Shown here piece after piece: positions 3,600-38,324 of a stretch of 38,324 bases of DNA (position 1 is the first letter of the stretch; each line of letters starts with the position of its first letter). Location of the stretch: the IMG/VR virus record IMGVR_UViG_3300047496_000311. The stretch is one strand, 5' to 3'. The position numbers and the translations under genes were made by a program. This DNA comes from a virus. Under the pieces are notes generated by a model, which saw only the letters and a program-made list of their open reading frames with translations, searched no databases and was not told the DNA's origin.

Positions 3600-4107
3600 G
3601 CATGGTCAATGTCCTGTGTGTTTCCCTCTTCCTCCTCTAAATGTTGTTGCGAATGGGGCCTATAAATATTTAGATGAAGATGACAAGTGGGGCTCTTATA
3701 TACTGTATTTGGATGACAGAAGTATTTTATGTGCTGGTGTTCCATTGAAAGAGTTTCTTGCGCAGGGATTTTTAAAAACCGCCGCTGCCTTGTGGGAATC
3801 AAACGCGATCGAATTCTATAAACATGAGCCCTCTAATCTTAATTTTATTCTCGAAAAAGATTGGGATAAGTTTTTTGATGGTTGTTCCCGTGAGCGTCGC
3901 GATAAATTTCTTGCTCCCATCGAGCAACTCAAGTACAAATACCAAGCCAAGCAAAATAAATTTATGCATGACTGTTGCTTGGGAGGCTATCTAAAGGGCA
4001 TAGAGCTCATAAGAGCCACGCAGTGTGATGCGGAAATGGGGTCATCTAGTTGGGAATGGGTTAAAGATAGTAAAGGTGAATGGCAGCGAAAAGATATTAA
4101 AGAATGA
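3592..4107 (+). CDS. hypothetical protein
   Basis: 171-aa ORF overlapping both neighbours. CPVC motif near the N-terminus. Confidence 0.55.
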   Translation: MSEHGQCPVCFPLPPLNVVANGAYKYLDEDDKWGSYILYLDDRSILCAGVPLKEFLAQGFLKTAAALWESNAIEFYKHEPSNLNFILEKDWDKFFDGCSRERRDKFLAPIEQLKYKYQAKQNKFMHDCCLGGYLKGIELIRATQCDAEMGSSSWEWVKDSKGEWQRKDIKE

Positions 4108-5462
4108 ACATAGAAGCGCAAATACATCTCAATAAGTTCCAACCAAGAGATTATCAATTACCTCTTTTTGATGCCATCGAGAATAAAGACTATAGAAAAG
4201 TCGTGGCCATTCTTCCTCGTAGGGCGGGGAAGGATGTCTGCGCCTTTAATATTGTATTGCGTTATGCCATCAGAAATATCTGTGTGTGTTACTATATTTT
4301 TCCTACTTATAGCCAGGGCCGCAAGGTGATCTTTGACTCAATCACGTCCGACGGCACGAGAATATTGGATTACATTCCTAAACAATTGATAGCCTCCATT
4401 AACTCTCAAGAGATGAAAATACGATTAGCGAATGGCTCATTGATACAGGTTGTTGGTTCAGATAATTACGATACGCTTATGGGAACGAACCCTAAGTTTG
4501 TTGTATTCTCCGAGTACGCATTACAAGACCCGAGGGCATATCAATTCATACGGCCCATTTTAGCAGCCAATGGTGGGTATGCTTTGTTCCTAAGTACGCC
4601 TCGTGGTAAGAATCATCTTTATTCTCTTTATGAAGTTGCCCGTAATTCCGAACAATGGTTTGCCTATAAGTTGACGTTAGATGATACCAGGCATATTCCC
4701 TATGAGGAAATCGAACAGGACCGACGCGATGGTCTCATATCTGAAGATCTGATTCTTCAGGAATATTATACTTCATTTGATATGGGAGTAGAGGGTGCTT
4801 ATTATTCTAAATACCTGGATCGTATGCGTGTTAATCATCAGATTGGGGTGGTGCCATGGGAGCCGGGATTTGCAGTGCATACGGCCTGGGATCTAGGAAT
4901 AAGGGACAGCACGTGCATAGCGTTCTATCAGGTAATTGGGGGCAGCCAAGTTCGCATAATAGACTGTTACGAAAAAAATAAAGAGGGCCTTGAGCATTAT
5001 GTTAATGTGGTTAATAGTAAGCCTTATACTTATGGGAAGCATATTGCGCCGTTTGATATTGCTGTGCGAGAATTGGGAACGGGTATGACCCGGTTGGAAA
5101 AGGCTAGACAGTTAGGTATAAAGTTTACGGTTGCCCCGAATATTGGGATTGAAGATGGAATTGAATCGGTACGAAGCGCGTTGGGAAAAATCTGGATCGA
5201 TGAAGAGAGATGTAAACCACTCATTAAGGCCTTGGAAAACTATAGACAGGAATATGATTCAAAGCGCCAGGTCTATAAATCTCAACCACTTCATGATATT
5301 AATTCTCATTTTGCTGATTGTATGCGTTATCTCTGTGTTTCGCTCCCAAAAATACGAGATGGATTGAGTGCGGAAGAGTTGGAACAAAGATACCAAGAGG
5401 CAGTATATGGCAAAAAATCAAATATGCCGGCAGTGTTCAGAGATGACTTGCCACCCTACTGA
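4104..5462 (+). CDS. terL: terminase large subunit
   Basis: 452 aa. Walker A-like LPRRAGKD and Walker B-like KFVVFSEYA. Nuclease-half motifs TAWDLGIRDSTCIAFYQ, HIAPFD and HDINSHFADCMRYL are typical of TerL. Confidence 0.9.
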   Translation: MNIEAQIHLNKFQPRDYQLPLFDAIENKDYRKVVAILPRRAGKDVCAFNIVLRYAIRNICVCYYIFPTYSQGRKVIFDSITSDGTRILDYIPKQLIASINSQEMKIRLANGSLIQVVGSDNYDTLMGTNPKFVVFSEYALQDPRAYQFIRPILAANGGYALFLSTPRGKNHLYSLYEVARNSEQWFAYKLTLDDTRHIPYEEIEQDRRDGLISEDLILQEYYTSFDMGVEGAYYSKYLDRMRVNHQIGVVPWEPGFAVHTAWDLGIRDSTCIAFYQVIGGSQVRIIDCYEKNKEGLEHYVNVVNSKPYTYGKHIAPFDIAVRELGTGMTRLEKARQLGIKFTVAPNIGIEDGIESVRSALGKIWIDEERCKPLIKALENYRQEYDSKRQVYKSQPLHDINSHFADCMRYLCVSLPKIRDGLSAEELEQRYQEAVYGKKSNMPAVFRDDLPPY

Positions 5463-5802
5463 AAAAAGCGAAATAGAAAAATACTTTGCTTATAAGAATG
5501 AACAAAGGGTTTTTTTTGACAACCTGTTTGGTTGTGTCATCAGTATTTGTCTATACGTTGCATTTTTTATTCTAATTTCTTCATTGTTGAGTCGTTTGAC
5601 AAGAAGATTGTTTAGGGCTCATTTTCAGGAAGCAGAAAAGAAAAGAAAAGCGGAAGAGCAGGCACGTGAATACGCACCCTATATAGAGCATTGGCGTAAA
5701 ATAGATGAACACATAGCCAAATTAAGTGAAAATAACAACAAAGAGACAAGTGAGAGTGATGATAGTAAAATTGTTGAGTCGTTTGACAAGAAGATTATTT
5801 AG
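5443..5802 (+). CDS. membrane-anchored coiled-coil protein (copy 1 of a tandemly duplicated module)
   Basis: ATG at 5443 within track ORF 5368..5802; start uncertain. TM segment LFGCVISICLYVAFFILISSLL, then LSRLTRRLFRAHFQEAEKKRKAEEQARE. Confidence 0.45.
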   Translation: MTCHPTEKSEIEKYFAYKNEQRVFFDNLFGCVISICLYVAFFILISSLLSRLTRRLFRAHFQEAEKKRKAEEQAREYAPYIEHWRKIDEHIAKLSENNNKETSESDDSKIVESFDKKII

Positions 5803-5994
5803 GACTTATTTTGAGGCAGCAGAAAAGAAAAGAAGAGCGGAAGAGCAAGCGCGTGAAGAAGAGCAAGCATATGAAGAAGAGAAAGCACGTGTTCACGCAG
5901 AATACTTAGAGAATTGGCGTAGAATAAATGAACATCTAGCTGAATTACGTGAAAATAACAACAAAGAGACAAGTCAGAGTGATGAGAGTAAAAA
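5584..5994 (+). repeat. tandem duplication: copy 1 at 5584..5770 (187 nt), copy 2 at 5771..5994 (224 nt with a ~37-nt insertion)
   Basis: Both copies start ttgttgagtcgtttgacaagaagatt and end gaaaataacaacaaagagacaagt[g/c]agagtgatga[t/g]agtaaaa. That end segment carries an RBS and ATG for the next ORF. Confidence 0.85.
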
Positions 5995-6001
5995 TGAATA
6001 A
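5759..6001 (+). CDS. coiled-coil protein (copy 2 of the duplicated module)
   Basis: ATG at 5759 after gagag. MIVKLLSRLTRRLFRTYFEAAEKKRRAEEQAREEEQ...NNNKETSQSDESKNE parallels copy 1 but is in a different frame from ORF 5443..5802. Confidence 0.4.
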   Translation: MIVKLLSRLTRRLFRTYFEAAEKKRRAEEQAREEEQAYEEEKARVHAEYLENWRRINEHLAELRENNNKETSQSDESKNE

Positions 6002-6542
6002 TCAAAGTGATTTTATAGATATATATGAATCTCGGCTTCGCAACGCGTATCTATGTGGATTTTTAGATGAATACGTGGAAGGATTGGTGACGTTGAATGG
6101 ATTGACGCGAGAAATTGTGGATCAGATAGTGATCAATCTTTATTCGCGCTACTCAAAGTGTGCGCACCCCGTCCCCTGTAAGTTACATCAAAAAAATAAG
6201 ATAATAGGTATGGGGACCATTGCCTTTTGTAATACACGCACATTGGATTATGTTCGTAAATGCCGCGGATTTATACCAATTGATAGGTATCCTAGGTATC
6301 CTACCGATTCAAATTCCCATTACAATTCTGAGTATGGAGCAGTTGGTAATGCTAGGTTTATAGTTGGCAATTTTTGTCGATCCGTGGTGAATCAGGATAA
6401 GATAACAGATTATCTGTATTTTGTAGCAGTCCCACAATGTGGTTGTGAAGGCCATCCTTGGTTTAGGCCCATAGATATTAAACCTGTTTGTATCTCGAGT
6501 AAATTAGCCACTTCAAATCCACCATCGACTATTGATTGGTAA
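5982..6542 (+). CDS. Cys-rich hypothetical protein
   Basis: Start at 5982 or 5994 (MNNQSDF...). About 185 aa with about 11 Cys. No motif recognised. Confidence 0.5.
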   Translation: MRVKMNNQSDFIDIYESRLRNAYLCGFLDEYVEGLVTLNGLTREIVDQIVINLYSRYSKCAHPVPCKLHQKNKIIGMGTIAFCNTRTLDYVRKCRGFIPIDRYPRYPTDSNSHYNSEYGAVGNARFIVGNFCRSVVNQDKITDYLYFVAVPQCGCEGHPWFRPIDIKPVCISSKLATSNPPSTIDW

Positions 6543-6545
6543 CTA

Positions 6546-6857
6546 ATGGTTTATAGAATATCTCAGATTATATTGTTTTTATTTCTCCTGGCAGGCGATT
6601 TCTGTAGCGTTGAAGTCCCGATCCCCATTCTGTGCAATCCGCCCATCGAGTGTGAAGTATGTGTTATTTATTTTTGGGAAAGTCGTTCTCCTTTTCTTGA
6701 TCGCAATCCCCTGTTCTCGGTAAGCTCTCAAAAGAAACGTACCGTATCATCTTTATATGGGAGGAAAAAAGATGAAAATACTCACGATTCTTTTGCTACT
6801 GGAGACTCTAACGGGTGGGATATTGGTGACGGCTGGCGGCTTGAACTTCGAGAATGA
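6546..6857 (+). CDS. hypothetical protein with N-terminal hydrophobic or signal segment
   Basis: 103-aa ORF, ISQIILFLFLLAGDFCS. Overlaps the next, better-supported gene by 86 nt, so it is doubtful. Confidence 0.3.
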   Translation: MVYRISQIILFLFLLAGDFCSVEVPIPILCNPPIECEVCVIYFWESRSPFLDRNPLFSVSSQKKRTVSSLYGRKKDENTHDSFATGDSNGWDIGDGWRLELRE

Positions 6858-7173
6858 TTTCGTTATTCAAAAGCAGAACGCTTTTCTCTGTGGTTTATTG
6901 AAAGCCGACGTTAATGTCATGGACTTAAGCTCTAAAAACCTAGATAACATAGAGAATATTCAGTATTTAGTGGTGAAACACAATGGTAATTACACATTGC
7001 TTAAGAGTGTAAAAAATCTCTATCTTAAGCTGAATAATAACAATTTAAAGACGCTACCTAAGGGAGTTCAGTCTCTTGATTTGGTGAAACTGAATGTAAA
7101 GAACAATAAAAACTTAATTCTTCCGAAATGGCTTTCCGAAATGAAAAGACTTATGTATATTAAAAAGGATTGA
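6772..7173 (+). CDS. secreted leucine-rich-repeat-like protein
   Basis: ATG at 6772 after GGAGG. Signal-like MKILTILLLLETLTGG. LRR-like LYLKLNNNNLKTLPKGVQSLDLVKLNVKNNKNLILPKWL. Confidence 0.45.
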   Translation: MKILTILLLLETLTGGILVTAGGLNFENDFVIQKQNAFLCGLLKADVNVMDLSSKNLDNIENIQYLVVKHNGNYTLLKSVKNLYLKLNNNNLKTLPKGVQSLDLVKLNVKNNKNLILPKWLSEMKRLMYIKKD

Positions 7174-7208
7174 TTGCCCGCTCCAACAGGCAACACTCAT
7201 CATGACTG

Positions 7209-7240
7209 CCCGTGGGCTTAAAAATCCACGGGTTTTTCTT
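7209..7240 (+). terminator. rho-independent terminator; its 3' half is duplicated at 7250..7271
   Basis: cccgtgg (7209..7215), loop, ccacggg (7226..7232), then tttttctttt. A second cttaaagatccacgggtttttt follows. Confidence 0.6.
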
Positions 7241-7283
7241 TTCACAATGCTTAAAGATCCACGGGTTTTTTGTTCGCATAATA

Positions 7284-7311
7284 TTGACAACCCCTTCATA
7301 AGTGATAGTAT
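7284..7311 (+). promoter_or_regulatory. sigma70-like promoter with extended -10
   Basis: TTGACA (7284..7289), 16 nt, TGaTAGTAT (-10 hexamer at 7306..7311). Confidence 0.5.
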
Positions 7312-7386
7312 TATACAGGAAGTGAGATGAATGGAGCGTATTTAATCATATCCGTTTAACAATTATATCTTTTGAGAAGGGAAGAT

Positions 7387-7797
7387 ATGTGTTCAATTCT
7401 TCGGCCTACGGCCGTTCTTTGTGTTATAGTTTTATTTAGTTCTCCATCCTTATTTGGGATGAATAAGTTCTTTAGTTTTAATCCTACTAGGGGCAATCTG
7501 CAGCTCAAGGTAGTGAGAGAAACGCTTAATCCTGTCCCTAAGGATAGTAGTGAGTTGATTAAAGAGACTATCATAGAGAAACTAGAAGAACAGGATGAAA
7601 AGCAGCTAGAGAAAGATGGGGAACTCTTCGATATGAAGTGGGAAGCTCTTAAGATAATAGCAGCAACCTCCGTGAGTGTAGGGCAACCTGGTGGTACATC
7701 TATACCTGTTGATCTAGGAAAGTTATATCTTACTTATAAAGCAACACAGTACGCTTATAACTATTTTATGTCTAACAAAGATTCGTCTAACGAATAA
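7387..7797 (+). CDS. secreted hypothetical protein (promoter-gene-terminator moron)
   Basis: ATG at 7387 after gaaggga. Signal-like MCSILRPTAVLCVIVLFSSPSLFG. Flanked by the promoter at 7284 and the terminator at 7819. Confidence 0.55.
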   Translation: MCSILRPTAVLCVIVLFSSPSLFGMNKFFSFNPTRGNLQLKVVRETLNPVPKDSSELIKETIIEKLEEQDEKQLEKDGELFDMKWEALKIIAATSVSVGQPGGTSIPVDLGKLYLTYKATQYAYNYFMSNKDSSNE

Positions 7798-7818
7798 TGC
7801 ATTAACTAAAACATCGCT

Positions 7819-7853
7819 TGGCCCCTACTCGGGGCCACAAATTCTTATTATTT
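7819..7853 (+). terminator. rho-independent terminator
   Basis: tggcccc (7819..7825), tactc, ggggcca (7831..7837), then a T-rich tail caaattcttattattt. Confidence 0.5.
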
Positions 7854-7870
7854 ACATTAAAGGAAGCTTT

Positions 7871-8824
7871 ATGAAAAAGGTATTTCTATGGATGACGCTT
7901 GCGTGTGCATCGTCATCTCTTTTTTCTGGTATCGATTCGGAAACATTAGTTGAAACATCTCAAGGCCGTATTAAGATGGGTGCTCTTAAGATCGGTTCTG
8001 AGTTGATGTGTCATTCAAATCCCAACACACGCACATGGGATACGGTTAAATCCATAGAGGGCCACGAAGTAGATAAGTATCTACAAGTTTGTCTTGCTGG
8101 TGGTAATAAACTTGATACCCTTCCCGATGAACGCGTATGGGTTTCTAGTATTAATTCCCATGATCCCGAGACAGGTGAAATCACTCAAAAACCATTTGGT
8201 AAATGGGTTAAGGTATCAGGTTTACGTCCTGGTTATGTTGTCATGGCCAAGAATAAAAAGAAGACGCAGAACGCATTTTTAAACTGTTTCTTTAATGAGA
8301 ACGTAAACTTGGATAGCAATGAGATTGTGAATGTTCGTAAAAAATATGGTCGTAAGATATTCAACTATATCGTCTTAAATAATATTCATAATTACGTTGC
8401 AGGCCAAGAGGGAATTGTTACTCATAATGGACCGTTTTTGGGTATATGCGGCTACTGGATCACTAAGGGTCTCTGTTATACTGGCGTGGTTGGTGGTGTT
8501 GCTGTTGGTGTTACTGCAGGAACTATGGCCGCTGGACCAGGCTTGGTTGGATTCGTTGCTGGAGGCACAGCCGGTGGAGCGGGTGCCGTAGGAGGCGCCA
8601 TTGCAGGAGGAAGTGCCGCTACTACTATAGTTTCTGGTATAGTCGGAGGAGGAATTGCCGTCCAAGGAACAGCCGGGGCAATTGCTGTGGGAGCTACTAC
8701 GGGAGCGGCTACAAGCGCAGGATTAACTGCAGGTGCAACGGCTACCGCTGTTGCTGTGGCTACGCAGATTGAGGTAATATCTATCTCAGTTATGAACTTC
8801 TTAAACCTCATTCCTTGGTGGTAA
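7871..8824 (+). CDS. secreted Hint (Hedgehog/intein-like) domain protein with C-terminal glycine-zipper hydrophobic module
   Basis: Signal MKKVFLWMTLACASSSLFSG. Intein block A-like DSETLVETSQGRIKMGALKIGSELM and block B-like LDTLPDERVWV. Blocks F/G IFNYIVLNNIHNYVAGQEGIVTHN end at N186. Then 131 aa rich in G/A/V/T (GVVGGVAVGVTAGTMAAGPGLVGFVAGGTAGGAGAVGG...), ending NLIPWW. Confidence 0.8.
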   Translation: MKKVFLWMTLACASSSLFSGIDSETLVETSQGRIKMGALKIGSELMCHSNPNTRTWDTVKSIEGHEVDKYLQVCLAGGNKLDTLPDERVWVSSINSHDPETGEITQKPFGKWVKVSGLRPGYVVMAKNKKKTQNAFLNCFFNENVNLDSNEIVNVRKKYGRKIFNYIVLNNIHNYVAGQEGIVTHNGPFLGICGYWITKGLCYTGVVGGVAVGVTAGTMAAGPGLVGFVAGGTAGGAGAVGGAIAGGSAATTIVSGIVGGGIAVQGTAGAIAVGATTGAATSAGLTAGATATAVAVATQIEVISISVMNFLNLIPWW

Positions 8825-8825
8825 T

Positions 8826-9017
8826 ATGAAAAAAGAGTTGTATGACGTGTATAAGGAAATAAACGAAATTAAGATTTGTTTGATTATACTTCCATTCGTA
8901 TTTATGTTATTTTACGGCTTAGGGCTTTCACTTTGGAAGGCTGTACCTATAATCTTTAGTGGTATCATGGTAGCGCTATGGAGAGTACAAGAGAAATTGG
9001 ATAAACTTAAGTCGTAA
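8826..9017 (+). CDS. small 2-TM membrane protein (candidate immunity or partner of the Hint protein)
   Basis: 63 aa. Starts 1 nt after the upstream stop. Two hydrophobic spans, ICLIILPFVFMLFYGLGLSLW and AVPIIFSGIMVALW. Confidence 0.6.
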   Translation: MKKELYDVYKEINEIKICLIILPFVFMLFYGLGLSLWKAVPIIFSGIMVALWRVQEKLDKLKS

Positions 9018-9040
9018 TCATAGACCTTTTTTTAATATGG

Positions 9041-9101
9041 TCCCTGGTGTAAAAGCCGGGGATTTTTTATCATTCTTGGTGTAAAAGCTGGGGATTTTTT
9101 T
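9041..9101 (+). terminator. tandem rho-independent terminators; the second is a degenerate copy
   Basis: tccctgg-tgtaaaag-ccgggga-tttttt (9041..9068), then tcttgg-tgtaaaag-ctgggga-ttttttt (9074..9101). Confidence 0.6.
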
Positions 9102-9155
9102 ATATCTTTTTTTCTGTCGTCTATATTATACTAAGTCAAAAAACGAGGTGTAGTA

Positions 9156-9371
9156 ATGAGGCGACCAGTACCCGGTAAAGCAACTGTTCATATTTATATT
9201 TCTCCAGAAATCCTAGAAAAAACTAAAAGATGGGTGTATTGGAACCCCGGCGCAACTGGTTCTGCATTGATCCAGGAGCTATTGGAGAATCATATTAAAT
9301 CGTATGAAAAAAAACATGGTGAACTTGAAGAGCCGGATGATATTACCTATAAAAGGATTCAGATAAGATAA
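9156..9371 (+). CDS. possible ribbon-helix-helix DNA-binding protein
   Basis: 71 aa. ATVHIYISPEILEKTKRWV...GSALIQELLENHIKSY has a strand-helix-helix pattern. Confidence 0.4.
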   Translation: MRRPVPGKATVHIYISPEILEKTKRWVYWNPGATGSALIQELLENHIKSYEKKHGELEEPDDITYKRIQIR

Positions 9372-9447
9372 TCTTGCCATTTACCTGGTTCTCTTTCTAT
9401 AGTAACTGAAAAGTAAATTTATCAGCGCGCTTAGATGGGAGAAATAT

Positions 9448-11469
9448 ATGTTGTTTCCGGAACTTGGCCCTCAGTATTATGATGATAAACATAAGGCCAT
9501 TTTATCCCGCATGGAAGCGTTCTACGCAGAATCAATCACCATTAATCAGTCTTTTTGGGGGGAAGCAGACACCGATCTTCGCTTTGAGACGGGCGATCAA
9601 ACCGTCTGGACAGATTTATACGGTAATTTACCCGCAAATCGTCGACGCCAATTCAGCTTTAACCGTATCCGCCCTATTGTTAATATGGTTTCTGGTTATC
9701 AAAAACGTAATCGTAAATCAACGATTGTGGTTCCCGTGGAGAACGCAGACGCACAAACAGCGGACGAATTCACTAAAGTGTTAATGTGGATTAACAATCA
9801 AGAAAACGTGTTGGAAACTATTTCTGATGCTTTCCATGGCGCATTAGTCACTGGGATGAATTTGCTTCAGGTATGGGTTGATTACCGTTCCGATCCAATA
9901 TCGGGTAACATTAAGGTCGATCGATGCGCCTATAATAGCTTTCTTATAGATCCCTATTTCCGTAAGGCTGACCTCAGTGATTGTAATGGTATTTGGAAGC
10001 GCACTTTCTTAACCAAACGCGAATGTATCTCTCTGATGCCAGATAAAGCAGATGAGATAATTGGACTAATTGGCAATGATTCAGGTACTGGAAGGGATGG
10101 AAAATTTCAGTTTGCACCGGAATCGTATCACTATGGACACAAAAATTTATTAACGTACGACGAGTATTATTACCGAGACTTCAGACTTCAAAAGTTATTA
10201 GTGGACACCGAAACGGGTGAGACACAAGAATGGAAGATGCAGAATAATGAAGACGCCCTTAAGGCCTTTCTGAAGCAATATCCACAAATATCGGTCGTCG
10301 AGCAAGAAGTTCCAACTACCAATCTAGCTATCGTGATCCAGGGAAAAGTTATGTATCACGGCCCTAACCCCTTGGGCATTGATCAGTATCCCTTCATTCC
10401 GGTGTGGGCTTTTTATAATCCTGAGATGCCTTACTTCCCACAGCGGATCCAGGGGATAGTCCGAAATTTAAGGGATGCCCAATACTTGTATAATCGCCGT
10501 AAGATTATCGAATTAGATATCTTGGAGTCACAGGTAAACTCTGGGTTCAAATATAAAGAGAATGCGCTTATTAATCCCAATGATATATTCCTCTCTGGTC
10601 AGGGTCGCGGCATTGCTATTAAGGAAGAAGCCCAAATGACTGACGTTGAACAGATTATCGCTCCATCTATTCCACCATCAATGATTCAATTGTCTGAGAT
10701 ATTGGCGAAAGAAATTCAGCAAATATCGGGCGTAAACGAGGAATTACTCGGGAGCGCGATGGATGACAAAGCAGGTATCCTGAGTATGCTCCGTCAAGGT
10801 GCAGGTTTAACGACCCTACAAGGCCTATTTGATAACTTAGATAGGGCACAAAAACTTCTGGGTAAACTTATGATAGATTTAATACAAACGACGTTCACGC
10901 CAGGCAAAGTTATGAAGATTCTGGAAGCAGAACCATCTCCCCAATTTTACAATAAGGCATTTGGTAAATATGATGCCGTGGTTGAAGATGGTTTGAATAC
11001 CGGTACCCAAAAACAGATGCAGTTTGCTCAACTATTACAACTGCGTGAAGTGGGTGTTCAAATACCTGATGAGGTTCTGTTAGATGCGGCCACCGTTCAG
11101 GAAAAGAAAAAATTAGTAGAAGCGGTCCGTGCTAACCAACAACAAATGCAGCAGATACAGCAACAACAAGCACAAGTTCAAATGGAAGTACAACAAGCCC
11201 AGATTGAATTGTCTAAAGCGAGAGCGCAAGCTGACCAGGGCCTTGGTATGGAGCGCTTATCTCGTATCCAAGAGAACCAGGCGTTGGCGGTTGAACGAAG
11301 AGCTGCTGCTGAGAAAGACCATGATCTTGCGTTATTGAACTTAGTGAAGGCGTTAAAAGAAATTGATAGTGTTGATCTGGAACACGTAGAAAAATTACTT
11401 GCTCTTGAAGGGATAGCGAGCCAGAGAACGCGGGAGAACGTCGCAGTATCCCCAGAGCAAGTTAAATAA
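9448..11469 (+). CDS. portal protein
   Basis: 673 aa. Positioned between terminase and scaffold/capsid. Long C-terminal Q-rich coiled coil (QQQMQQIQQQQAQVQMEVQQAQIELSKARAQ), as in portal barrel extensions. RBS gggaga. Confidence 0.75.
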   Translation: MLFPELGPQYYDDKHKAILSRMEAFYAESITINQSFWGEADTDLRFETGDQTVWTDLYGNLPANRRRQFSFNRIRPIVNMVSGYQKRNRKSTIVVPVENADAQTADEFTKVLMWINNQENVLETISDAFHGALVTGMNLLQVWVDYRSDPISGNIKVDRCAYNSFLIDPYFRKADLSDCNGIWKRTFLTKRECISLMPDKADEIIGLIGNDSGTGRDGKFQFAPESYHYGHKNLLTYDEYYYRDFRLQKLLVDTETGETQEWKMQNNEDALKAFLKQYPQISVVEQEVPTTNLAIVIQGKVMYHGPNPLGIDQYPFIPVWAFYNPEMPYFPQRIQGIVRNLRDAQYLYNRRKIIELDILESQVNSGFKYKENALINPNDIFLSGQGRGIAIKEEAQMTDVEQIIAPSIPPSMIQLSEILAKEIQQISGVNEELLGSAMDDKAGILSMLRQGAGLTTLQGLFDNLDRAQKLLGKLMIDLIQTTFTPGKVMKILEAEPSPQFYNKAFGKYDAVVEDGLNTGTQKQMQFAQLLQLREVGVQIPDEVLLDAATVQEKKKLVEAVRANQQQMQQIQQQQAQVQMEVQQAQIELSKARAQADQGLGMERLSRIQENQALAVERRAAAEKDHDLALLNLVKALKEIDSVDLEHVEKLLALEGIASQRTRENVAVSPEQVK

Positions 11470-11480
11470 GGAGAGTTAGT

Positions 11481-11630
11481 ATGCCATTACCATCAATCGT
11501 TAAAGCCATCGGTGGTCTATTAAATGAACAAAATATCGAACAAGTGATTGATCTTGTTGAAAAACTTGTAGTGCTTGGGGAACAATTGGAAAATTCGATC
11601 TCTCAATCCAATGCCAACCCACCACAATAA
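11481..11630 (+). CDS. small hypothetical protein (49 aa)
   Basis: Below the ORF-track size cutoff. AAGGAG 7 nt upstream of the ATG at 11481. MPLPSIVKAIGGLLNEQNIEQVIDLVEKLVVLGEQLENSISQSNANPPQ. Confidence 0.5.
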   Translation: MPLPSIVKAIGGLLNEQNIEQVIDLVEKLVVLGEQLENSISQSNANPPQ

Positions 11631-11771
11631 ATCTTATTTTGCTTAAAGCCTCGGCAAATAAGACCAGTCTTCGCCTACAGACTAGGCGCAGGTAGTTAGA
11701 GGTATTTATTAACCTTGTTTGAAAGTGTGATATTTTGTCACGGGTTCAAGCAGTTTCTACAGGAGTCTGCT

Positions 11772-12041
11772 ATGGCAGAAAAAAAACGTTATTACGAAAG
11801 CTCAGAAAAGTACGCAGGAATGGAGTCTCGTCGGAAACAGGAAATGGAAGACGGCGGCATGATCAGTGAGGATCACAGCCAAGTTGCTAATCTTCCACAA
11901 GAAGTTATGTATAAACCGTATCCAAAAAACACTCATTATATGCCAGAAGATTTGGATGATACCATACGTGGTGTTGATCGTCAGATGAATGAGCTTGATG
12001 GTGCAAAAGCGGCACGTCATAACGTTCCGAAGAAAGTTTAA
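11772..12041 (+). CDS. hypothetical protein, paralogue A (RRKQE..MI.EDH..VANL motif)
   Basis: ATG at 11772 after aggag. MAEKKRYYESSEKYAGMESRRKQEMEDGGMISEDHSQVANLPQEVMYKPYP... Confidence 0.55.
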   Translation: MAEKKRYYESSEKYAGMESRRKQEMEDGGMISEDHSQVANLPQEVMYKPYPKNTHYMPEDLDDTIRGVDRQMNELDGAKAARHNVPKKV

Positions 12042-14702: not shown

Positions 14703-16283
14703 ATGTCAATTACGACTACTTCAACGCTACCAGCACCAGTACAGCAAAGCTTTAGCTATAAGCTGCTGTCGGTGCCGGTGCCTAATATGATCCATAAGAT
14801 CCCTGCTATGAAAAAGCAGATGCCTCGAAATGGTGGTACAACGTTGCGTATGAGAAGATATAATCCTTTAAATACAGCAATGGTTCCCCTTGGAAATAGT
14901 GGCATCACTCCTCCACCACAAAATTTAACTGCCGTGGATATTGACGCTCAGATCTCATTTTATGGGACTTACGTTCAAATTAACGAGCAAGTGACCTTGC
15001 AAAACCAAGATCCAGTTCTTAATGAATGTGCTGCACGTTTAGGTGTTTCTCTTCGTCAAACCGAAGACCAATTAACCTCAAATATGCTCGCATCTACTGC
15101 TTCATTTATCAACTGCGTTGGCGGTGTTAATGGCGACGTTCCGACAGAATTAACTCGTTCGGACGTTGATGAAGTGGTTCGTGCTCTTTTGGGCAATAAT
15201 GCTTACACCATCATGGATAACATTGAAGGTGATTTGAAATTCGGTACAGCGCCTAAAAAGAATGGGCGCTTTAAATCTTTTCTGATTGACTTAGAAGCCC
15301 TATGGGGTGATAAGGCGCAAGCAAGTTTATACTGTGCAGCGTGAACGACTAAGTGAAGAGACCTCGAAAGAGGATGCGATAGTCTGACCTCTATGGAAAC
15401 ATAGAGAGGGAGATCCGAAGAGGTTTCCCCGCCACGCAAGTGGTCATTAAAGTAACAGAATGGTTCGTGATGCTTACTTTGCATTATGTCATACCGATTT
15501 AACAGCAGATATGGATAATATTGCTGGTTTCATACAAAAGAACCAATATCCATCACCAATGAATGCACTGCGTTCAGAGTGGGGTTCTATTGGAAACCTT
15601 AGATTCTTAGTGTCTTCAATTGGCAGCGTTTTCCAAAATGCGTCCAACTTAGGTGCTAATATCTACAATATTTTCTGTGTTGGTATGGAGGCTAAAGTGT
15701 TAGGCCTCATAAAATTTTGGGTAATTGACTTGGAAACCGTAGTGGCTTCTAGCTAACCGGTGACAAGGGGCAAGCGCAAGCAGCCTGAACGACTAAACCC
15801 TGAGACCCAGAAATGGGATGTGATAGTCTGACCTGCATGGAAACATGCAGAGGGAGATCCGAAGAGGTTTCCCCGCCACGCAAGTGGTCATTAAAGTAAC
15901 AGAATTGTATGCATGTATAGAGCAAGATGGATATAGTGCTTCGTTCATAAACTAGATATGTGAACGTTAAATCTTGGGTAATTGACTTGGAACCCGTAGT
16001 GGCTTCTAGCTAACCGGTGACAAGGGGCAAGCGTGATTGCAGCCTGAACGACTAAACCCTGAGACCTCGAAAGAGGATGCGATAGTCTGACCTCTATGGA
16101 AACATAGAGAGGTGACCTGAAGTGGAAGCCCGCTCGCAAGAGTAGTAACACGTGTGATATAGACCGCCGATATATGATGGGCCATTGGCACTTAACGCAT
16201 CTGTAGGCTATAAAATGGCAGAGGTGCCTCGGATATGCAATGATTTATGGGTCCTAAATCTACGCTGCACCTTAGCAGTTTAA
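14703..16283 (+). CDS. major capsid protein (HK97-fold, N4 gp56-like pattern), four exons: join(14703..15254, 15463..15693, 15908..15948, 16157..16283) = 316 aa
   Basis: Exon 1 motifs: GGTTLRMRRYNPL...ITPPPQNLTAVDIDAQISFYGTYVQINEQV. The spliced junctions read GTAP|VRDAYFALCH, CVGMEA|YACIEQDGYSASF, then I-YRPPIYDGPLALNASVGYKMAEVPRICNDLWVLNLRCTLAV. Exon lengths 552+231+41+127 = 951 nt, in frame. Track ORFs 14703..15344 and 15460..15756 are exon plus intron read-through. Confidence 0.8.
15255..15462 (+). ncRNA. group I self-splicing intron 1 (208 nt, no ORF)
   Basis: P1: exon gcgccu (15249..15254) pairs with gggcgc (15264..15269), with a U.G pair at the splice site. P7 is gacta (15347..15351) with tagtc (15380..15384). 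P8 is CCTC-gaaa-GAGG (15362..15373). P9 is CTCTATG-gaaa-CATAGAG (15389..15406). CCAC-gcaa-GTGG hairpin. Terminal G at 15462. Possible P10: gaau (15260..15263) with exon 2 guuc. Confidence 0.8.
15694..15907 (+). ncRNA. group I self-splicing intron 2 (214 nt, no ORF)
   Basis: P1: exon gaggcu (15688..15693) pairs with ggccuc (15703..15708), U.G at the site. Same gaacgactaa ... gatagtctgacc core. P8 is CCCA-gaaa-TGGG and P9 is CTGCATG-gaaa-CATGCAG, both compensatory relative to intron 1. Terminal G at 15907. Confidence 0.8.
15949..16156 (+). ncRNA. group I self-splicing intron 3 (208 nt, no ORF; splits a codon)
   Basis: P1: exon cguucau (15942..15948) pairs with gugaacg (15960..15966), U.G at the site. 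Same core as introns 1 and 2. CTC-gcaa-GAG hairpin. Terminal G at 16156. Exon 3 ends AT and exon 4 starts A, giving an Ile codon and the only open downstream frame. Confidence 0.75.
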
Positions 16284-16298
16284 CCCGAAGGAGATAAC

Positions 16299-17438
16299 AT
16301 GGATGGAACTATATTAAGCCAAGGCACGCTTATCGCGCCGGCAACTATTGTCCCGGTAGCCATTAATATCCCGTCTGGGGTAGACTGGCTGAAGGTTGTT
16401 AACTATACCCAAAAAGGTACCGTTGGTGGTGCTGGTGCGGTTGGTAACGAGTTTTATTGGCAACGTGGAATGGCTGCGGGTTCAGCAGTTGTTTCCTATT
16501 ATTCAAATGGTAGCACTGTTTTAAATGGTGATACGCTCGTGAGTGGTGGTTTTACTCTGTATGATCCATCAGGACAAACACAGGGTGCATTACCATTGGT
16601 TGGTACACCTTTAGCTGCAACTGCTATTACCAACGCACGTCGTCCTGTTGTAAGCACAACACATACTTCTGGATTATCTGTTGGTTCGATTGTAAGACTA
16701 TCAGTTCTTTCAGGAGACACTGCAGTAATTGGTTCTTTGGGAACTATGGATTTTGTGGTTGGTGCTATTAACGCGGGCGTTAGCTTTACCTTATTGTTGG
16801 CAAGCAATCAGCTTCCAGCAAATCCAGGTATTACTACCGGTACGTTGCATTTCTCAATCATTAACTATAATCCACTTTATTATCCATATCATCGGATTAT
16901 CACTGAAATTACTCAAGAAGCAAATGCTGAAGTGAGTACGTCAGTTCCTCACGGATTGACTCCGGGACAAGTGTTAAGATTCAACATTCCGGCTGCTGCT
17001 GGCATGACACAATTGAATCCGTCATCACTTAATAACTACTTCCCTCAATCAGCGAGTCAGAATGCGTACGTGGTTTCGGTGGTTGATGATTATAATTTCA
17101 TTATTAATATTGATACAACTAATTACACTGCGTTTTCGTTCCCATCGGTTGCATCTGCTCCAAGTACATTGCCGCAGATAATTCCATTTGGTGAAAACAC
17201 CTCTGCATCTCTTTCAATTCCTGCATCTCAGATACCAACTATTAATAGTATTCAGATATTTGGTACCCAATCGGGTATTTTAGCTGATGCTACAACAAAT
17301 ACTGGTTATCTTGGTATGATCTTTGGAATTGGTGGTAATGGTACCGTGAGCGGCGCCAATATTACTGGTCCAGCAGGTGCTGATCAAGACGATGTCATCT
17401 ACTGGGTAGCTGGTAAATCAGCATACGGTGGTTTGTAA
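16299..17438 (+). CDS. virion protein with two beta-barrel repeats, possible capsid decoration or fibre protein
   Basis: 379 aa; RBS gaaggag. Directly follows the capsid gene. Repeats ITNARRPVVSTTHTSGLSVGSIVRLS... and ITQEANAEVSTSVPHGLTPGQVLRFNIPAAAGMTQLN...IINIDTTNYTAFSF. Confidence 0.45.
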   Translation: MDGTILSQGTLIAPATIVPVAINIPSGVDWLKVVNYTQKGTVGGAGAVGNEFYWQRGMAAGSAVVSYYSNGSTVLNGDTLVSGGFTLYDPSGQTQGALPLVGTPLAATAITNARRPVVSTTHTSGLSVGSIVRLSVLSGDTAVIGSLGTMDFVVGAINAGVSFTLLLASNQLPANPGITTGTLHFSIINYNPLYYPYHRIITEITQEANAEVSTSVPHGLTPGQVLRFNIPAAAGMTQLNPSSLNNYFPQSASQNAYVVSVVDDYNFIINIDTTNYTAFSFPSVASAPSTLPQIIPFGENTSASLSIPASQIPTINSIQIFGTQSGILADATTNTGYLGMIFGIGGNGTVSGANITGPAGADQDDVIYWVAGKSAYGGL

Positions 17439-26352: not shown

Positions 26353-26646
26353 TCAGTCGTTTTCTTTAATAGTTATTTCAGGCTCAATTATTTCAGACTC
26401 AACTAACACAAGTTTGTATCCAATAGCATGTAATATACTTAATACAGTTCTAAATTGAGCATGGGATTGCTTCTTACTAAATATCTTATAAAGGCTTTCC
26501 CTTCCAAGAGAAGACCTTCTGGCTACTATGGGATATTTTTGTTTTCTTACTATTTTCTCAACATGTGAAAGAAATATCTCTGTATCTTTTTGGTTAATCG
26601 AATTATTAAGAGATTCTATATCAGTAAGGCTTTTTTCTATATTCAT
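26353..26646 (-). CDS. HigA-family 'addiction module antidote'-like HTH protein (no cognate toxin seen)
   Basis: 97 aa. ARRSSLGRESLYKIFSKKQSHAQFRTVLSILHAIGYKLVLV matches the antidote-family core (gl.ReSLYkaLs..gNP.f.Tvlkvl.alGl.L.v). Confidence 0.65.
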   Translation of the reverse strand: MNIEKSLTDIESLNNSINQKDTEIFLSHVEKIVRKQKYPIVARRSSLGRESLYKIFSKKQSHAQFRTVLSILHAIGYKLVLVESEIIEPEITIKEND

Positions 26647-26867
26647 AGTTTTTCTGACATTTTTGTTAATGTTTTAATAATATGGATATATTCGTCTGCT
26701 TCTATCTCATTTGTAATTATTCCTATAATGGTATCCGCTATAGAAATATTTAATAGATTGGCCACAGAGTAGAGGTGCCCCACAACGTGTTCTAGGGAGT
26801 TTGCTTGTATGCCTTCAATTTTTTCTTGAAGTTCATTGATTTTTTTTGTTAATTCTATGTTTTCCAT
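26643..26867 (-). CDS. helical hypothetical protein
   Basis: ATG at 26867 after aagga (MENIELTKKINELQEKIEG...). ATGA overlap with the downstream HigA-like gene. Not RelE/HigB-like. Confidence 0.45.
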   Translation of the reverse strand: MENIELTKKINELQEKIEGIQANSLEHVVGHLYSVANLLNISIADTIIGIITNEIEADEYIHIIKTLTKMSEKL

Positions 26868-26875
26868 TTTGTTCC

Positions 26876-27049
26876 TTATTCTTTTAATGTCTTGTCCTCT
26901 TCCAACATTCTCATCTTTATGGCTCTTAATATCCACGTATTCATACTAATGCCACGTCGAGCGGCACGCTGTTTTACTTCACTATGGATAGCTGCGTCAA
27001 AATTTAAGATCAACTTCTTACTTTGTTTATGGGCCGTTTCTTTTTCCAT
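26876..27049 (-). CDS. ribbon-helix-helix (Arc/CopG-like) DNA-binding protein
   Basis: ATG at 27049 after ggaga. KKLILNFDAAIHSEVKQRAARRGISMNTWILRAIKMRMLEE is a typical RHH pattern. First gene after the promoter at 27074..27103. Confidence 0.6.
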   Translation of the reverse strand: MEKETAHKQSKKLILNFDAAIHSEVKQRAARRGISMNTWILRAIKMRMLEEDKTLKE

Positions 27050-37643: not shown

Positions 37644-38198
37644 TCACTTACTCGCGTAGTCCAGAACCTCACTAAATTTACTCCATGGCATCTCCTCAAG
37701 CCGTGAAATATTTAATCTTTTTAAGATTGCTAACTCTTTTTCCTTATTGTTTTGCAGTTTGAATCGAAGCAATCCAGCCTGTTTATCTGAGATGGTATTA
37801 CTCTTTGACGCTACTTCTCCATCATTATCAGCTTCGTCATCCTCTGCCGCTAATCCCAACAGCAACATAATGTGATACCGAGAATGATAGGTGCATGAAC
37901 CACCAAATGCCTGGTCATTACTTTGTGGATTATCTGCCGGAGTCAATGTAGAGACTGATGAGATGTACTGACCAGTCTCAATGTGAACGACGATGGTCTT
38001 TAACGCTTGTTTTTCACCAATGTGACACAACTCCTGGAAAAATTTTAATCCGTGCTTAGAAGTCATTTTTGACACGGTTTCAATTATCTGGGATCGAGAG
38101 GCGTAGGTACTTTTATGGCCCTTGGAGTCTTTCCGTATGATAACCCCAAACTCCTTGTGCATGGCATCAAGAGCTGCCATTATTTTATTTAGTTCCAT
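37644..38198 (-). CDS. erf: Erf-family single-strand annealing (recombination) protein
   Basis: Start taken at the ATG at 38198 (MELNK...) after gggaga. KSTYASRSQIIETVSKMTSKHGL...VVHIETGQYIS...QAFGGSCTYHSRYHIMLLLGLAAEDDEADNDG matches the ERF pattern (kY.Ya.l..i...v...l.khGl; GSa.TY.rRY.l...lGi..eDDD). Confidence 0.75.
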   Translation of the reverse strand: MELNKIMAALDAMHKEFGVIIRKDSKGHKSTYASRSQIIETVSKMTSKHGLKFFQELCHIGEKQALKTIVVHIETGQYISSVSTLTPADNPQSNDQAFGGSCTYHSRYHIMLLLGLAAEDDEADNDGEVASKSNTISDKQAGLLRFKLQNNKEKELAILKRLNISRLEEMPWSKFSEVLDYASK

Positions 38199-38324
38199 AA
38201 TTATCTCCCAGTAAATCATAATGGTCTTTCAGAAAGTTTATAATCTTAAACATAGAATAATGGTGCGGCTTGGTCTGGCCACAAATAAAGCGTCTCAGTG
38301 TATTGATATTGATATTGATGTTCC
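38185..38324 (-). CDS. 3' portion of the junction-spanning HTH gene (second representation of 1..127 plus the last 13 nt with the stop)
   Basis: The reading frame from 236 continues through the repeat and ends ...GDNYGTK-TAA at 38187..38185, overlapping the erf start. Confidence 0.6.
   Translation of the reverse strand, partial: NINININTLRRFICGQTKPHHYSMFKIINFLKDHYDLLGDNYGTK
38198..38324. repeat. terminal direct repeat, identical to 1..127
   Basis: See the feature at 1..127. Confidence 0.95.

Follow-up and report, generated by a model that had tools for sequence, protein, structure and literature searches.

Sec-exported ('T2SS', type II secretion system) polymorphic toxins have been described in which a HINT domain immediately precedes the toxin (PMC3482391). 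We analyzed a stretch of viral DNA of 38,324 nucleotides (IMG/VR virus record IMGVR_UViG_3300047496_000311; this whole stretch is called the window), in which two neighboring genes recall that arrangement in a reduced form: a gene at 7871-8824 (plus strand, as are all features of the pair given below), with an ATG start, which by predicted function encodes a toxin precursor of 317 amino acids (aa) with a signal peptide, a Hint domain and a hydrophobic tail; and a gene at 8826-9017, also with an ATG start, for a 63-aa membrane protein with a putative role in cognate immunity. The two genes are probably a minimal Sec-dependent polymorphic-toxin/immunity cassette, carried by the phage as accessory cargo.

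The pair shares with the Sec/'T2SS' toxins that contain PT-HINT (PF07591) a HINT domain before a variable C-terminal module, export (here predicted) by a signal peptide, a gene downstream that is here putatively for immunity, and exchange at a fixed junction (PMC3482391). It differs from them in that the signal peptide abuts the Hint domain, with no repeats, RHS or other trafficking domain; in that the N-terminal nucleophile and the block-B histidine are lost, a β-rich insertion of ~50 aa is present, and the domain stays below the PF07591 threshold; and in that the payloads are non-enzymatic hydrophobic peptides without a Pfam family, borne by a phage. The class 1 MafB toxins of Neisseria, which have been studied by experiment, parallel the predicted cassette in their signal-peptide-dependent polymorphic secretion and in the immunity gene, mafI, that follows (PMC4287609). 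Compared with MafB, the window protein has no N-terminal domain, and its predicted payload is a membrane peptide. MafB reportedly carries a large DUF1020 domain before its bacterial intein-like (BIL) domain, and the MafB toxin that was tested is said to be a nuclease. BIL domains (2LWY from Clostridium thermocellum; BIL2 of Tetrahymena BUBL) are also the nearest solved structures (E=7e-10, target template modeling (TM) score 0.73-0.81); they occur in secreted proteins that are hypervariable, and they cleave themselves instead of splicing. The characterized structures keep Cys1 (the BIL2 entries are C1A mutants), whereas the family of the window protein has Gly, and a C-terminal cut alone is expected.

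For the tail, the comparison is with another set of toxins. TelE, EsxX, and TspA are glycine-zipper depolarizing toxins with membrane immunity proteins (PMC12744356), and the ionophores of contact-dependent inhibition (CDI) are paired with hydrophobic CdiI immunity proteins (PMC11630599). Like the first three, which belong to the type VII secretion system (T7SS), and like the CDI ionophore CdiA-CT, the cassette has a hydrophobic zipper-rich C-terminal module, a putative membrane protein for immunity (small or polytopic TsaI, ExiCD, and CdiI-EC93 in those systems), and high polymorphism of these immunity proteins. It differs in delivery, predicted here to be by Sec and self-cleavage and not by a type V, VI or VII secretion system (T5SS/T6SS/T7SS), and in a tail that is longer, richer in Gly, Ala, and Thr, and of low complexity in its middle. 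We regard the likeness as a resemblance, not as demonstrated homology.

The logic of a Hint domain before a toxin and the paired immunity gene are thus already known, and one cellular homologue bears a polymorphic-toxin HINT label at NCBI. What is new is the minimal architecture of signal peptide, Hint domain and peptide, with the N-terminal catalytic residues lost; three uncatalogued families of hydrophobic tails, for which Pfam and the PDB gave no relative; the fact that the named homologues come only from Dependentiae/Babeliales; and the carriage by an abundant uncultured phage lineage. A literature search returned no paper that joins a HINT domain, a glycine zipper and a toxin.

Hint domain and predicted cleavage site

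Searched alone against Pfam, the window protein gave a sub-threshold match to Intein_splicing over residues 111-186 (E=0.024; 14.9 bits against a cut-off of 35.8). A profile of five family sequences, compared with the PDB, had the bacterial intein-like domain 2LWY as its top match (E=6.5e-4), and the next eleven matches were all inteins or Hedgehog proteins. In the AlphaFold2 model (from a 19-sequence alignment), residues 21-186 mostly have a pLDDT (the model's own estimate of the local distance difference test) of ~90 or above. Foldseek comparison of this model to the PDB gave 67 matches at E<=1e-3, and the 50 listed all have the Hint fold (inteins, BIL, and Hedgehog); the best are BIL2 (6y75, E=7e-10), 2lwy (target TM score 0.81), and the gp41-1 intein (TM score 0.84). 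In addition, two relatives, P0002 and P0010, score 52.5 and 42.8 bits against PF07591 (cut-off 27.7); since relatives are linked at profile E-values of 1e-14 to 1e-60, the window protein can be placed among the PT-HINT proteins by transitive homology together with structure. Judging from these profile and model comparisons and from residue conservation, residues 20-186 (7928-8428) are a Hint domain of the PT-HINT/BIL-like kind, with IHNYVAG as block F and VTHN as block G. The phage copies contain a specific β-rich insertion of ~50 aa at about residues 96-150. Four large proteins with PKD, fn3, and RTX regions (P0008, P0009, P0011, and P0012) were rejected as relatives; they match this insert only.

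The catalytic residues differ between the two ends of the domain. The Cys1 position is occupied by Gly20 in the window protein and by Gly across the family; and the position of the block-B histidine is occupied by Glu87 in the window protein (LPDE) and by Gln in most relatives (xPDQ). A canonical class 1 intein has Cys, Ser or Thr at position 1 and TxxH in block B, both absent here, and it interrupts a conserved host protein; the flanks of this Hint domain are a signal peptide and a variable hydrophobic tail. At the C-terminal end, HN stands at the junction in every one of the 38 full-length relatives scored. Gly follows as the +1 residue in 37 of them and Asp in one, with no Cys, Ser or Thr nucleophile, and Pro comes next in 23. 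Across 19 aligned sequences with the tail type of the window protein (type A, 22-42% identical to the window protein), H185, N186, P188, Y195, K199, and E301 are invariant, and G187 is nearly so. The predicted scissile junction Asn186/Gly187 lies at 8426-8431 (N186 codon at 8426-8428, G187 codon at 8429-8431), with the break at 8428/8429. That inteins can cleave at the C-terminus by Asn cyclization, without coupling to the two initial steps of splicing, is well established (PMC7765530). We predict from the residue pattern that this Hint domain has lost its N-terminal chemistry and retains Asn-cyclization cleavage at N186/G187 alone. The initial annotation had proposed a Hint domain in this gene, with missing N-terminal catalytic residues and intact C-terminal blocks ending at N186. 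The fold, for which Pfam alone is weak evidence, is established by the family profile, the model and the Foldseek comparison; the N-terminal losses extend family-wide; and HN/G is kept across the family, with the break correctly placed.

The Sec signal peptide is predicted at residues 1-19 (7871-7927, MKKVFLWMTLACASSSLFS), with a predicted signal peptidase I site at LFS/G. It was judged by eye and from a family motif: the segment has a KK n-region and a hydrophobic core (residues 2-13 are helical in the AlphaFold2 model), and among 29 relatives scored, 21 have [LIVM]-x-[AS]/G directly before the Hint domain. Read as a site for signal peptidase I, this motif would place the cut exactly where the Hint domain begins. 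The mature N-terminus would then be Gly20, with which the domain starts, and the signal peptide would take the part of the N-extein. A compact periplasmic Hint domain that cleaves only C-terminally, with signal peptidase making its N-terminus, could serve as a self-releasing tag. We also considered a lipoprotein signal (LAC, residues 10-12), which is not kept in the relatives.

Tail exchange and the paired small gene

The tail behind the junction (residues 187-317, 8429-8821; type A) has 131 aa and ~11.9 kDa, and is predicted to be released as a membrane-active peptide. It consists of 24% G, 20% A, 12% V, and 11% T, and contains two charged residues (grand average of hydropathy, GRAVY, 1.11). 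Glycine-zipper motifs number 7 and 6, and shuffles of the same composition contain 3.2 and 2.5 (p about 0.04; the extended motif is (G/A/S)xxxGxxxG, as defined in PMC12744356); and there are 24 small-xxx-small-xxx-small (i/i+4/i+8) patterns, as compared to 12.7 in shuffles (p=0.0008). Composition and shuffles thus agree with the initial annotation, which had described a Gly/Ala/Val/Thr-rich peptide full of GxxxG/A zippers. Two helices of membrane length are predicted in the model with moderate confidence: a junction helix (residues 189-213, 8435-8509; pLDDT 65-75), with the conserved motif GYWxTKxLCY in which Y195 and K199 are invariant; and a C-terminal hydrophobic helix (residues 287-313, 8729-8809; pLDDT 75-78), with the invariant Glu301 in the motif E-x-x-S-x-x-V-x-x-F-L...P. 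Pfam at E<=10 found nothing in five type A tails or in tails of the two other types described below (B and C), and a phmmer search of the tail against the PDB returned noise only. A C-terminal outer-membrane β-signal and a sortase-type sorting signal were rejected; the terminal residues vary (WW, TP, TW, LP, IP) and there is no basic tail.

We collected the family by several searches. A word-indexed search with the whole protein was swamped by low-complexity candidates and gave one relative (P0002); a profile query of the Hint domain and junction solved this problem and gave 40 proteins, in which full-length members have 190-304 aa, and nearly all have a precomputed PF07591 PT-HINT match. A full HMMER search of 1.84 billion representatives (query residues 20-190) matched P0006 (53% identity), P0007 (43%), and P0010. 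A GTDB genome scan with a two-sequence query found only an unrelated archaeal Hint match (L006); a metagenome scan found only L008, already known as a family locus; and PHROGs and NCBIfam gave nothing significant for the toxin, its partner and their neighbors. No deposited phage encodes the toxin gene. P0002 is annotated by NCBI as a 'polymorphic toxin-type HINT domain-containing protein' of a Candidatus Dependentiae bacterium, and another member comes from a Candidatus Babeliales bacterium; outside the related phages, these are the sole named sources of the family. Most members are located in ordinary chromosomal neighborhoods of Dependentiae-like genomes (for example, with PolA, PriA, Ddl, tRNA synthetases, and ankyrin proteins).

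At least three unrelated hydrophobic tail types stand behind the conserved N-terminal part: type A, as in the window (about 100-160 aa; GYWxTKxLCY ... AVExAS ... PFLP); type B (65-77 aa; ... WTAAPA ... GIALGTxTGPV); and type C (about 72-77 aa; ... GKFxVxxVGHG ... ALExTF ... TGPV). Pairs of relatives change tails exactly behind HN: P0037 and P0042 share 99.4% identity up to HN and 19% after it, P0037 and P0040 share 95.5 and 19%, and P0020 and P0022 share 98.0 and 26%. As read from these alignments, the HN/G junction is the recombination breakpoint of the family, and a swap at a fixed junction is what defines polymorphic toxins. A type C tail also occurs without the Hint domain: in a related phage (L022), a 159-aa protein (6303-6782, minus strand) consists of a signal peptide, a non-Hint pre-domain ending in ...GHVNG, and a type C tail.

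Two small open reading frames (ORFs) with multiple transmembrane segments follow this gene in L022 (6030-6302 and 5800-6033, minus strand), and the same phage has a 211-aa secreted Gly/Ala-rich protein (4716-5351, minus strand); a similar 207-aa protein adjoins the toxin cassette in L013 (1726-2349, minus strand). A single cellular locus may contain a second Hint-toxin gene besides the first (L012, 8812-9870; L016, 2548-3480). In L012, the 3' end of the first Hint-toxin gene is fused to or disrupted by transposase-like sequence, and a resolvase fragment and an insertion sequence (IS) transposase are found just downstream; these sequences point to cassette turnover mediated by mobile elements.

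The 63-aa product of the downstream gene has hydrophobic segments at about residues 15-29 and 40-54 and a charged C-terminus. A single base (8825) separates the stop codon of the toxin gene from its ATG, and a Shine-Dalgarno-like GGTGG is found 4 nt before this ATG; from this spacing, the small gene is likely to be translationally coupled to the toxin gene. In nine of the ten copies with readable downstream sequence, the toxin gene is directly followed or overlapped by a small ORF (56-97 aa) that encodes two hydrophobic segments: 63 aa at +2 nt in the window, 76 aa in L001 and 84 aa in L013 (both at -18 nt, an overlap), 56 aa at +34 nt in L005, 83 aa at +13 nt in L008, 58 aa at +91 nt in L012, 69 aa (overlapping) and 63 aa at +11 nt behind the first and second copies in L016, and 97 aa, adjacent and on the opposite strand of the phage, in L081. 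The exception is L015, which has no such ORF of >=30 aa. Several of these ORFs had been missed by the original gene finders. The partners in L001 and L013 share 64% identity with a ratio of nonsynonymous to synonymous substitution rates (dN/dS) of 0.29, which indicates a real gene under purifying selection. The partners of the phage copies no longer resemble one another recognizably, a divergence to be expected if cognate immunity proteins track divergent tails; we predict from this pattern that the 63-aa protein is the cognate immunity protein. The two-segment mini-gene of the initial annotation accordingly has a counterpart at nearly every copy, and the polymorphic-toxin arrangement that it suggested now extends to a PT-HINT family of ~40 members, with tails swapped exactly after HN and a small two-segment ORF downstream.

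The tail and its partner might instead be a non-toxic membrane or periplasmic accessory: the tail would be an inner-membrane anchor, cleavage would mature or shed the protein, and the envelope of the infected cell would be changed by the pair (one example is superinfection exclusion through a block to DNA entry). Sec export would probably place so long a hydrophobic tail in the membrane, which fits such a role; so do the neighboring phage genes, which are moron-like in being small, separately terminated and secreted or eukaryote-like (a leucine-rich-repeat (LRR) protein and a 136-aa secreted protein). We consider this accessory role unlikely. It leaves unexplained why at least three unrelated tails follow an N-terminal part that is 95-99% identical, why a small, fast-diverging partner is strictly linked, and why HN/G is invariant; and PADLOC found no known defense or exclusion family.

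Carrying phage and cargo island

The window has a 127-bp terminal direct repeat (1-127 and 38198-38324), which indicates a complete circular assembly of ~38.2 kb; its G+C content is 41%. The genome is also on record in circularly permuted forms, and the identical 317-aa protein is encoded on permuted 38-kb contigs. The large terminase gene (TerL, a PHROG match) is located at 4104-5462, and the portal gene, of P22 type (Pfam 7e-80), at 9448-11469. More than 5000 close relatives of the portal are found in metagenomes (those listed, 120 in number, are 73-90% identical), and the maximum lengths of the sequences that hold those 120 cluster at 32-39 kb. Against deposited phages, portal identity is at most 25%, and neither blastn of 7000-12000 nor tblastn of the 317-aa protein found a match in 50,697 deposited phage records. 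The phage lineage is thus abundant and uncharacterized. The window contains no tRNA.

The gap between TerL and the portal is ~4 kb in the window (5462-9448) and ranges from 443 bp to ~5 kb among 80 IMG/VR relatives; over 64 related phages the range is the same. The flanking TerL and portal are 84-94% identical between phages, as compared to 0-43% for the genes within: for example, between the window and L005, identity is 88% for TerL, 84% for the portal, 43% for the toxin and 28% for the LRR protein, and the partners have no detectable similarity. The region between TerL and portal (5463-9447) is a hypervariable cargo island. Several small genes of the window lie in it; their products are secreted or eukaryote-like, and hairpins that resemble terminators end two of these genes. 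The Hint-tail gene is found in two of the 80 related phage loci (portal 68-84% identical): L017, which is the same contig as L005, and L081, where the cassette is located downstream of the portal on the opposite strand. The rarity of the cassette, its different site and its fast divergence indicate that it is accessory cargo and not a core function.

These observations also bear on a lysis role, which the initial annotation had offered as a possibility. In such a device, the exported precursor would build up and Hint self-cleavage would act as a slow clock that frees a holin-like depolarizing peptide, with the 63-aa protein as an antiholin or as a holin of the class II or pinholin type; the pair would set the time of host lysis. 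As that annotation had noted, no endolysin or holin can be recognized in the window genome, which holds for the ORFs tested (precomputed Pfam on called genes; PHROGs on 30 ORFs). The same searches recognized no integrase, and a virulent phage is accordingly possible. Two hydrophobic segments and a charged C-terminus, generic features of holins, are present in the 63-aa protein, and the best point for lysis is found in L005, where an M15 peptidase with a C-terminal transmembrane segment (Pfam 1.2e-7) is encoded two genes before the Hint gene. The pair accordingly resembles holin/antiholin pairs (class II, pinholins) in its small two-segment protein with a charged C-terminus, its predicted depolarization and, in L005, the M15 endolysin nearby. 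It differs from them in having a 317-aa exported precursor that is predicted to cleave itself, in its presence in 2 of 80 relatives, and in its occurrence at non-phage chromosomal loci.

Most relatives, many of them with no more than 443-800 bp between TerL and portal, lack the cassette, and the lineage must therefore lyse in its absence. Of the 80 loci, 20 encode an M15 peptidase, but elsewhere in the genome and away from the cassette; linkage is seen in L005 alone, and in the window there is no such gene. In addition, the cassette of L081 is placed elsewhere and on the opposite strand, the family is found mostly in ordinary Dependentiae-like chromosomal loci, sometimes in two copies, and tail swapping at a fixed junction is the signature of conflict toxins, not of holins. 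With its cassette confined to 2 of 80 relatives, in a variable island or on the other strand, and to chromosomal contexts, a lysis effector is disfavored, and we regard it as quite improbable. Endolysin-like Peptidase_M15_4 genes are found at 3669-4127 in L005, 14724-15065 in L069, 9545-9883 in L095, and 14504-14845 in L051.

Dependentiae and Babeliales are parasites, and obligate associates, of protists (PMC6561590), and a target in the eukaryotic cell may be proposed: if the host is an intracellular Dependentiae bacterium, the peptide would permeabilize the vacuolar or an organelle membrane of the protist, for example for the escape of bacteria or phage, and the small protein would merely shield the membrane of the producer. 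That the named cellular homologues come solely from these bacteria favors this proposal; so does the neighborhood of the cassette, which adjoins the LRR protein in the phage island and is near ankyrin proteins in L015. There is also no outer-membrane crossing or receptor-binding module for bacterial targets. Against it, conflict between related bacteria typically goes with many divergent alleles and a paired immunity gene, and Pfam and PDB searches of the tail gave no homology to known eukaryote-directed pore formers. An anti-eukaryotic effector is in our estimate a rather remote explanation. We consider it very unlikely that a cellular toxin cassette has been recruited for egress by a phage of an intracellular, Dependentiae-type bacterium, with Hint cleavage as the release step or timer of an egress peptide (a new kind of holin or a permeabilizer of protist membranes) that the 63-aa protein restrains. 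Given its named sources and a phage lineage that is abundant but uncultured, the cassette offers a way to study conflict, or the manipulation of hosts, in a system about which little is known.

Proposed mechanism, boundaries and neighboring genes

For the polymorphic-toxin/immunity cassette that we favor, the following course can be proposed. The signal peptide would export the 317-aa precursor, and signal peptidase I would cut after Ser19. The Hint domain would fold on the periplasmic side, where His185-Asn186 would cyclize Asn186, break N186/G187 and free the almost uncharged 131-aa peptide; Hint would in effect replace the leader-peptide protease of bacteriocin systems. The peptide, with two helices around a zipper-rich stretch, would enter the cytoplasmic membrane from outside, oligomerize through its small-residue faces and depolarize it, as TelE, EsxX, TspA, and the CDI ionophores do. 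The co-translated 63-aa protein, with its two transmembrane segments in the producer membrane, would block insertion or assembly of the cognate tail. The phage might gain from competition, from exclusion, or from an effect on the membranes that surround its host. We also considered a virion or ejection protein, with which the signal peptide and the chromosomal homologues do not fit.

Several points weigh against the cassette reading. The fold, the residue pattern, the exchange at the junction, the gene pairing and the accessory status are what the analysis shows; cleavage, membrane activity, toxicity and protection are inferred. The window protein has no PF07591 PT-HINT match at the gathering threshold of 27.7 bits, and no Pfam Hint threshold is reached. 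H173, the F-block histidine that assists Asn cyclization, is present in the window protein and variable across the family. In the middle of the tail (residues 210-286), the AlphaFold2 model has pLDDT <35, and Pfam and PDB searches of the tail gave no homology to a characterized toxin (TelE, EsxX, TspA, Tse5-CT, and CdiA-CT(EC93) were not compared directly). SecYEG may insert the long hydrophobic tail laterally during export, so that it would not be released in soluble form, and no route across the outer membrane is encoded. Finally, the phage may not be temperate, since no integrase was recognized and all 120 listed portal relatives are on contigs of <=~40 kb, and a classical role in lysogenic conversion would then be less obvious. 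Should experiments not bear out cleavage or toxicity, all that is left is a divergent homologue of PT-HINT whose tail is of low complexity.

The two ORFs with their 1-nt gap and the tandem terminators behind them, as initially annotated, are present, the latter as two hairpin and T-run elements. Intrinsic terminator 1, called by the terminator scan, is located at 9039-9071 (9-bp stem at 9039-9064 and T6; -15.8 kcal/mol); and a weaker tandem repeat of it, a direct repeat as read from the sequence, follows at 9072-9102 (stem at 9072-9095 and T7; -6.4 kcal/mol). Upstream, a Shine-Dalgarno-like AGGAAG (7861-7866) is found 4 nt before the ATG of the toxin gene. A G+C-rich hairpin (7819-7837; GGCCCC-loop-GGGGCC, RNAfold -14.6 kcal/mol) follows the gene for the 136-aa protein and is a possible upstream boundary of the cassette; it has no U-run directly after it, and the terminator scan did not call it. 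Promoter-like sites are not more frequent than in shuffles.

The island holds further genes. The small LRR protein (6772-7173; weak Pfam LRR_14 and LRR_1) has an N-terminal hydrophobic segment, and its gene has its own tandem terminators (7208-7233 and about 7255-7270); L005 has a counterpart, 28% identical, at the same place. The LRR protein suggests interaction with a eukaryotic cell, which fits a protist-associated host. The 136-aa protein (7387-7797) has a signal-peptide-like N-terminus and no family match, and its position holds the M15 peptidase in L005. A 71-aa protein (9156-9371), encoded directly before the portal, shares 38-42% identity across the Hint-carrying phages (window, L005, and L008); it has a weak tblastn match in L019 and no significant family match.

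Elsewhere in the window, a 213-aa ORF (14703-15344) is the sole match to a 'major head protein' PHROG (6e-17), spanning positions 22-202 of the 356-position profile, and a 379-aa ORF (16299-17438) has no match; which of the two, if either, is the capsid gene is uncertain. On the minus strand at 26353-26936 there are two 97-aa genes, one with a precomputed Pfam match to 'dnstrm_HI1420' and a PHROG match to a 'transcriptional repressor' (2.7e-10). A weak HicB-like gene is located near this pair, which may be a toxin-antitoxin or regulatory module.

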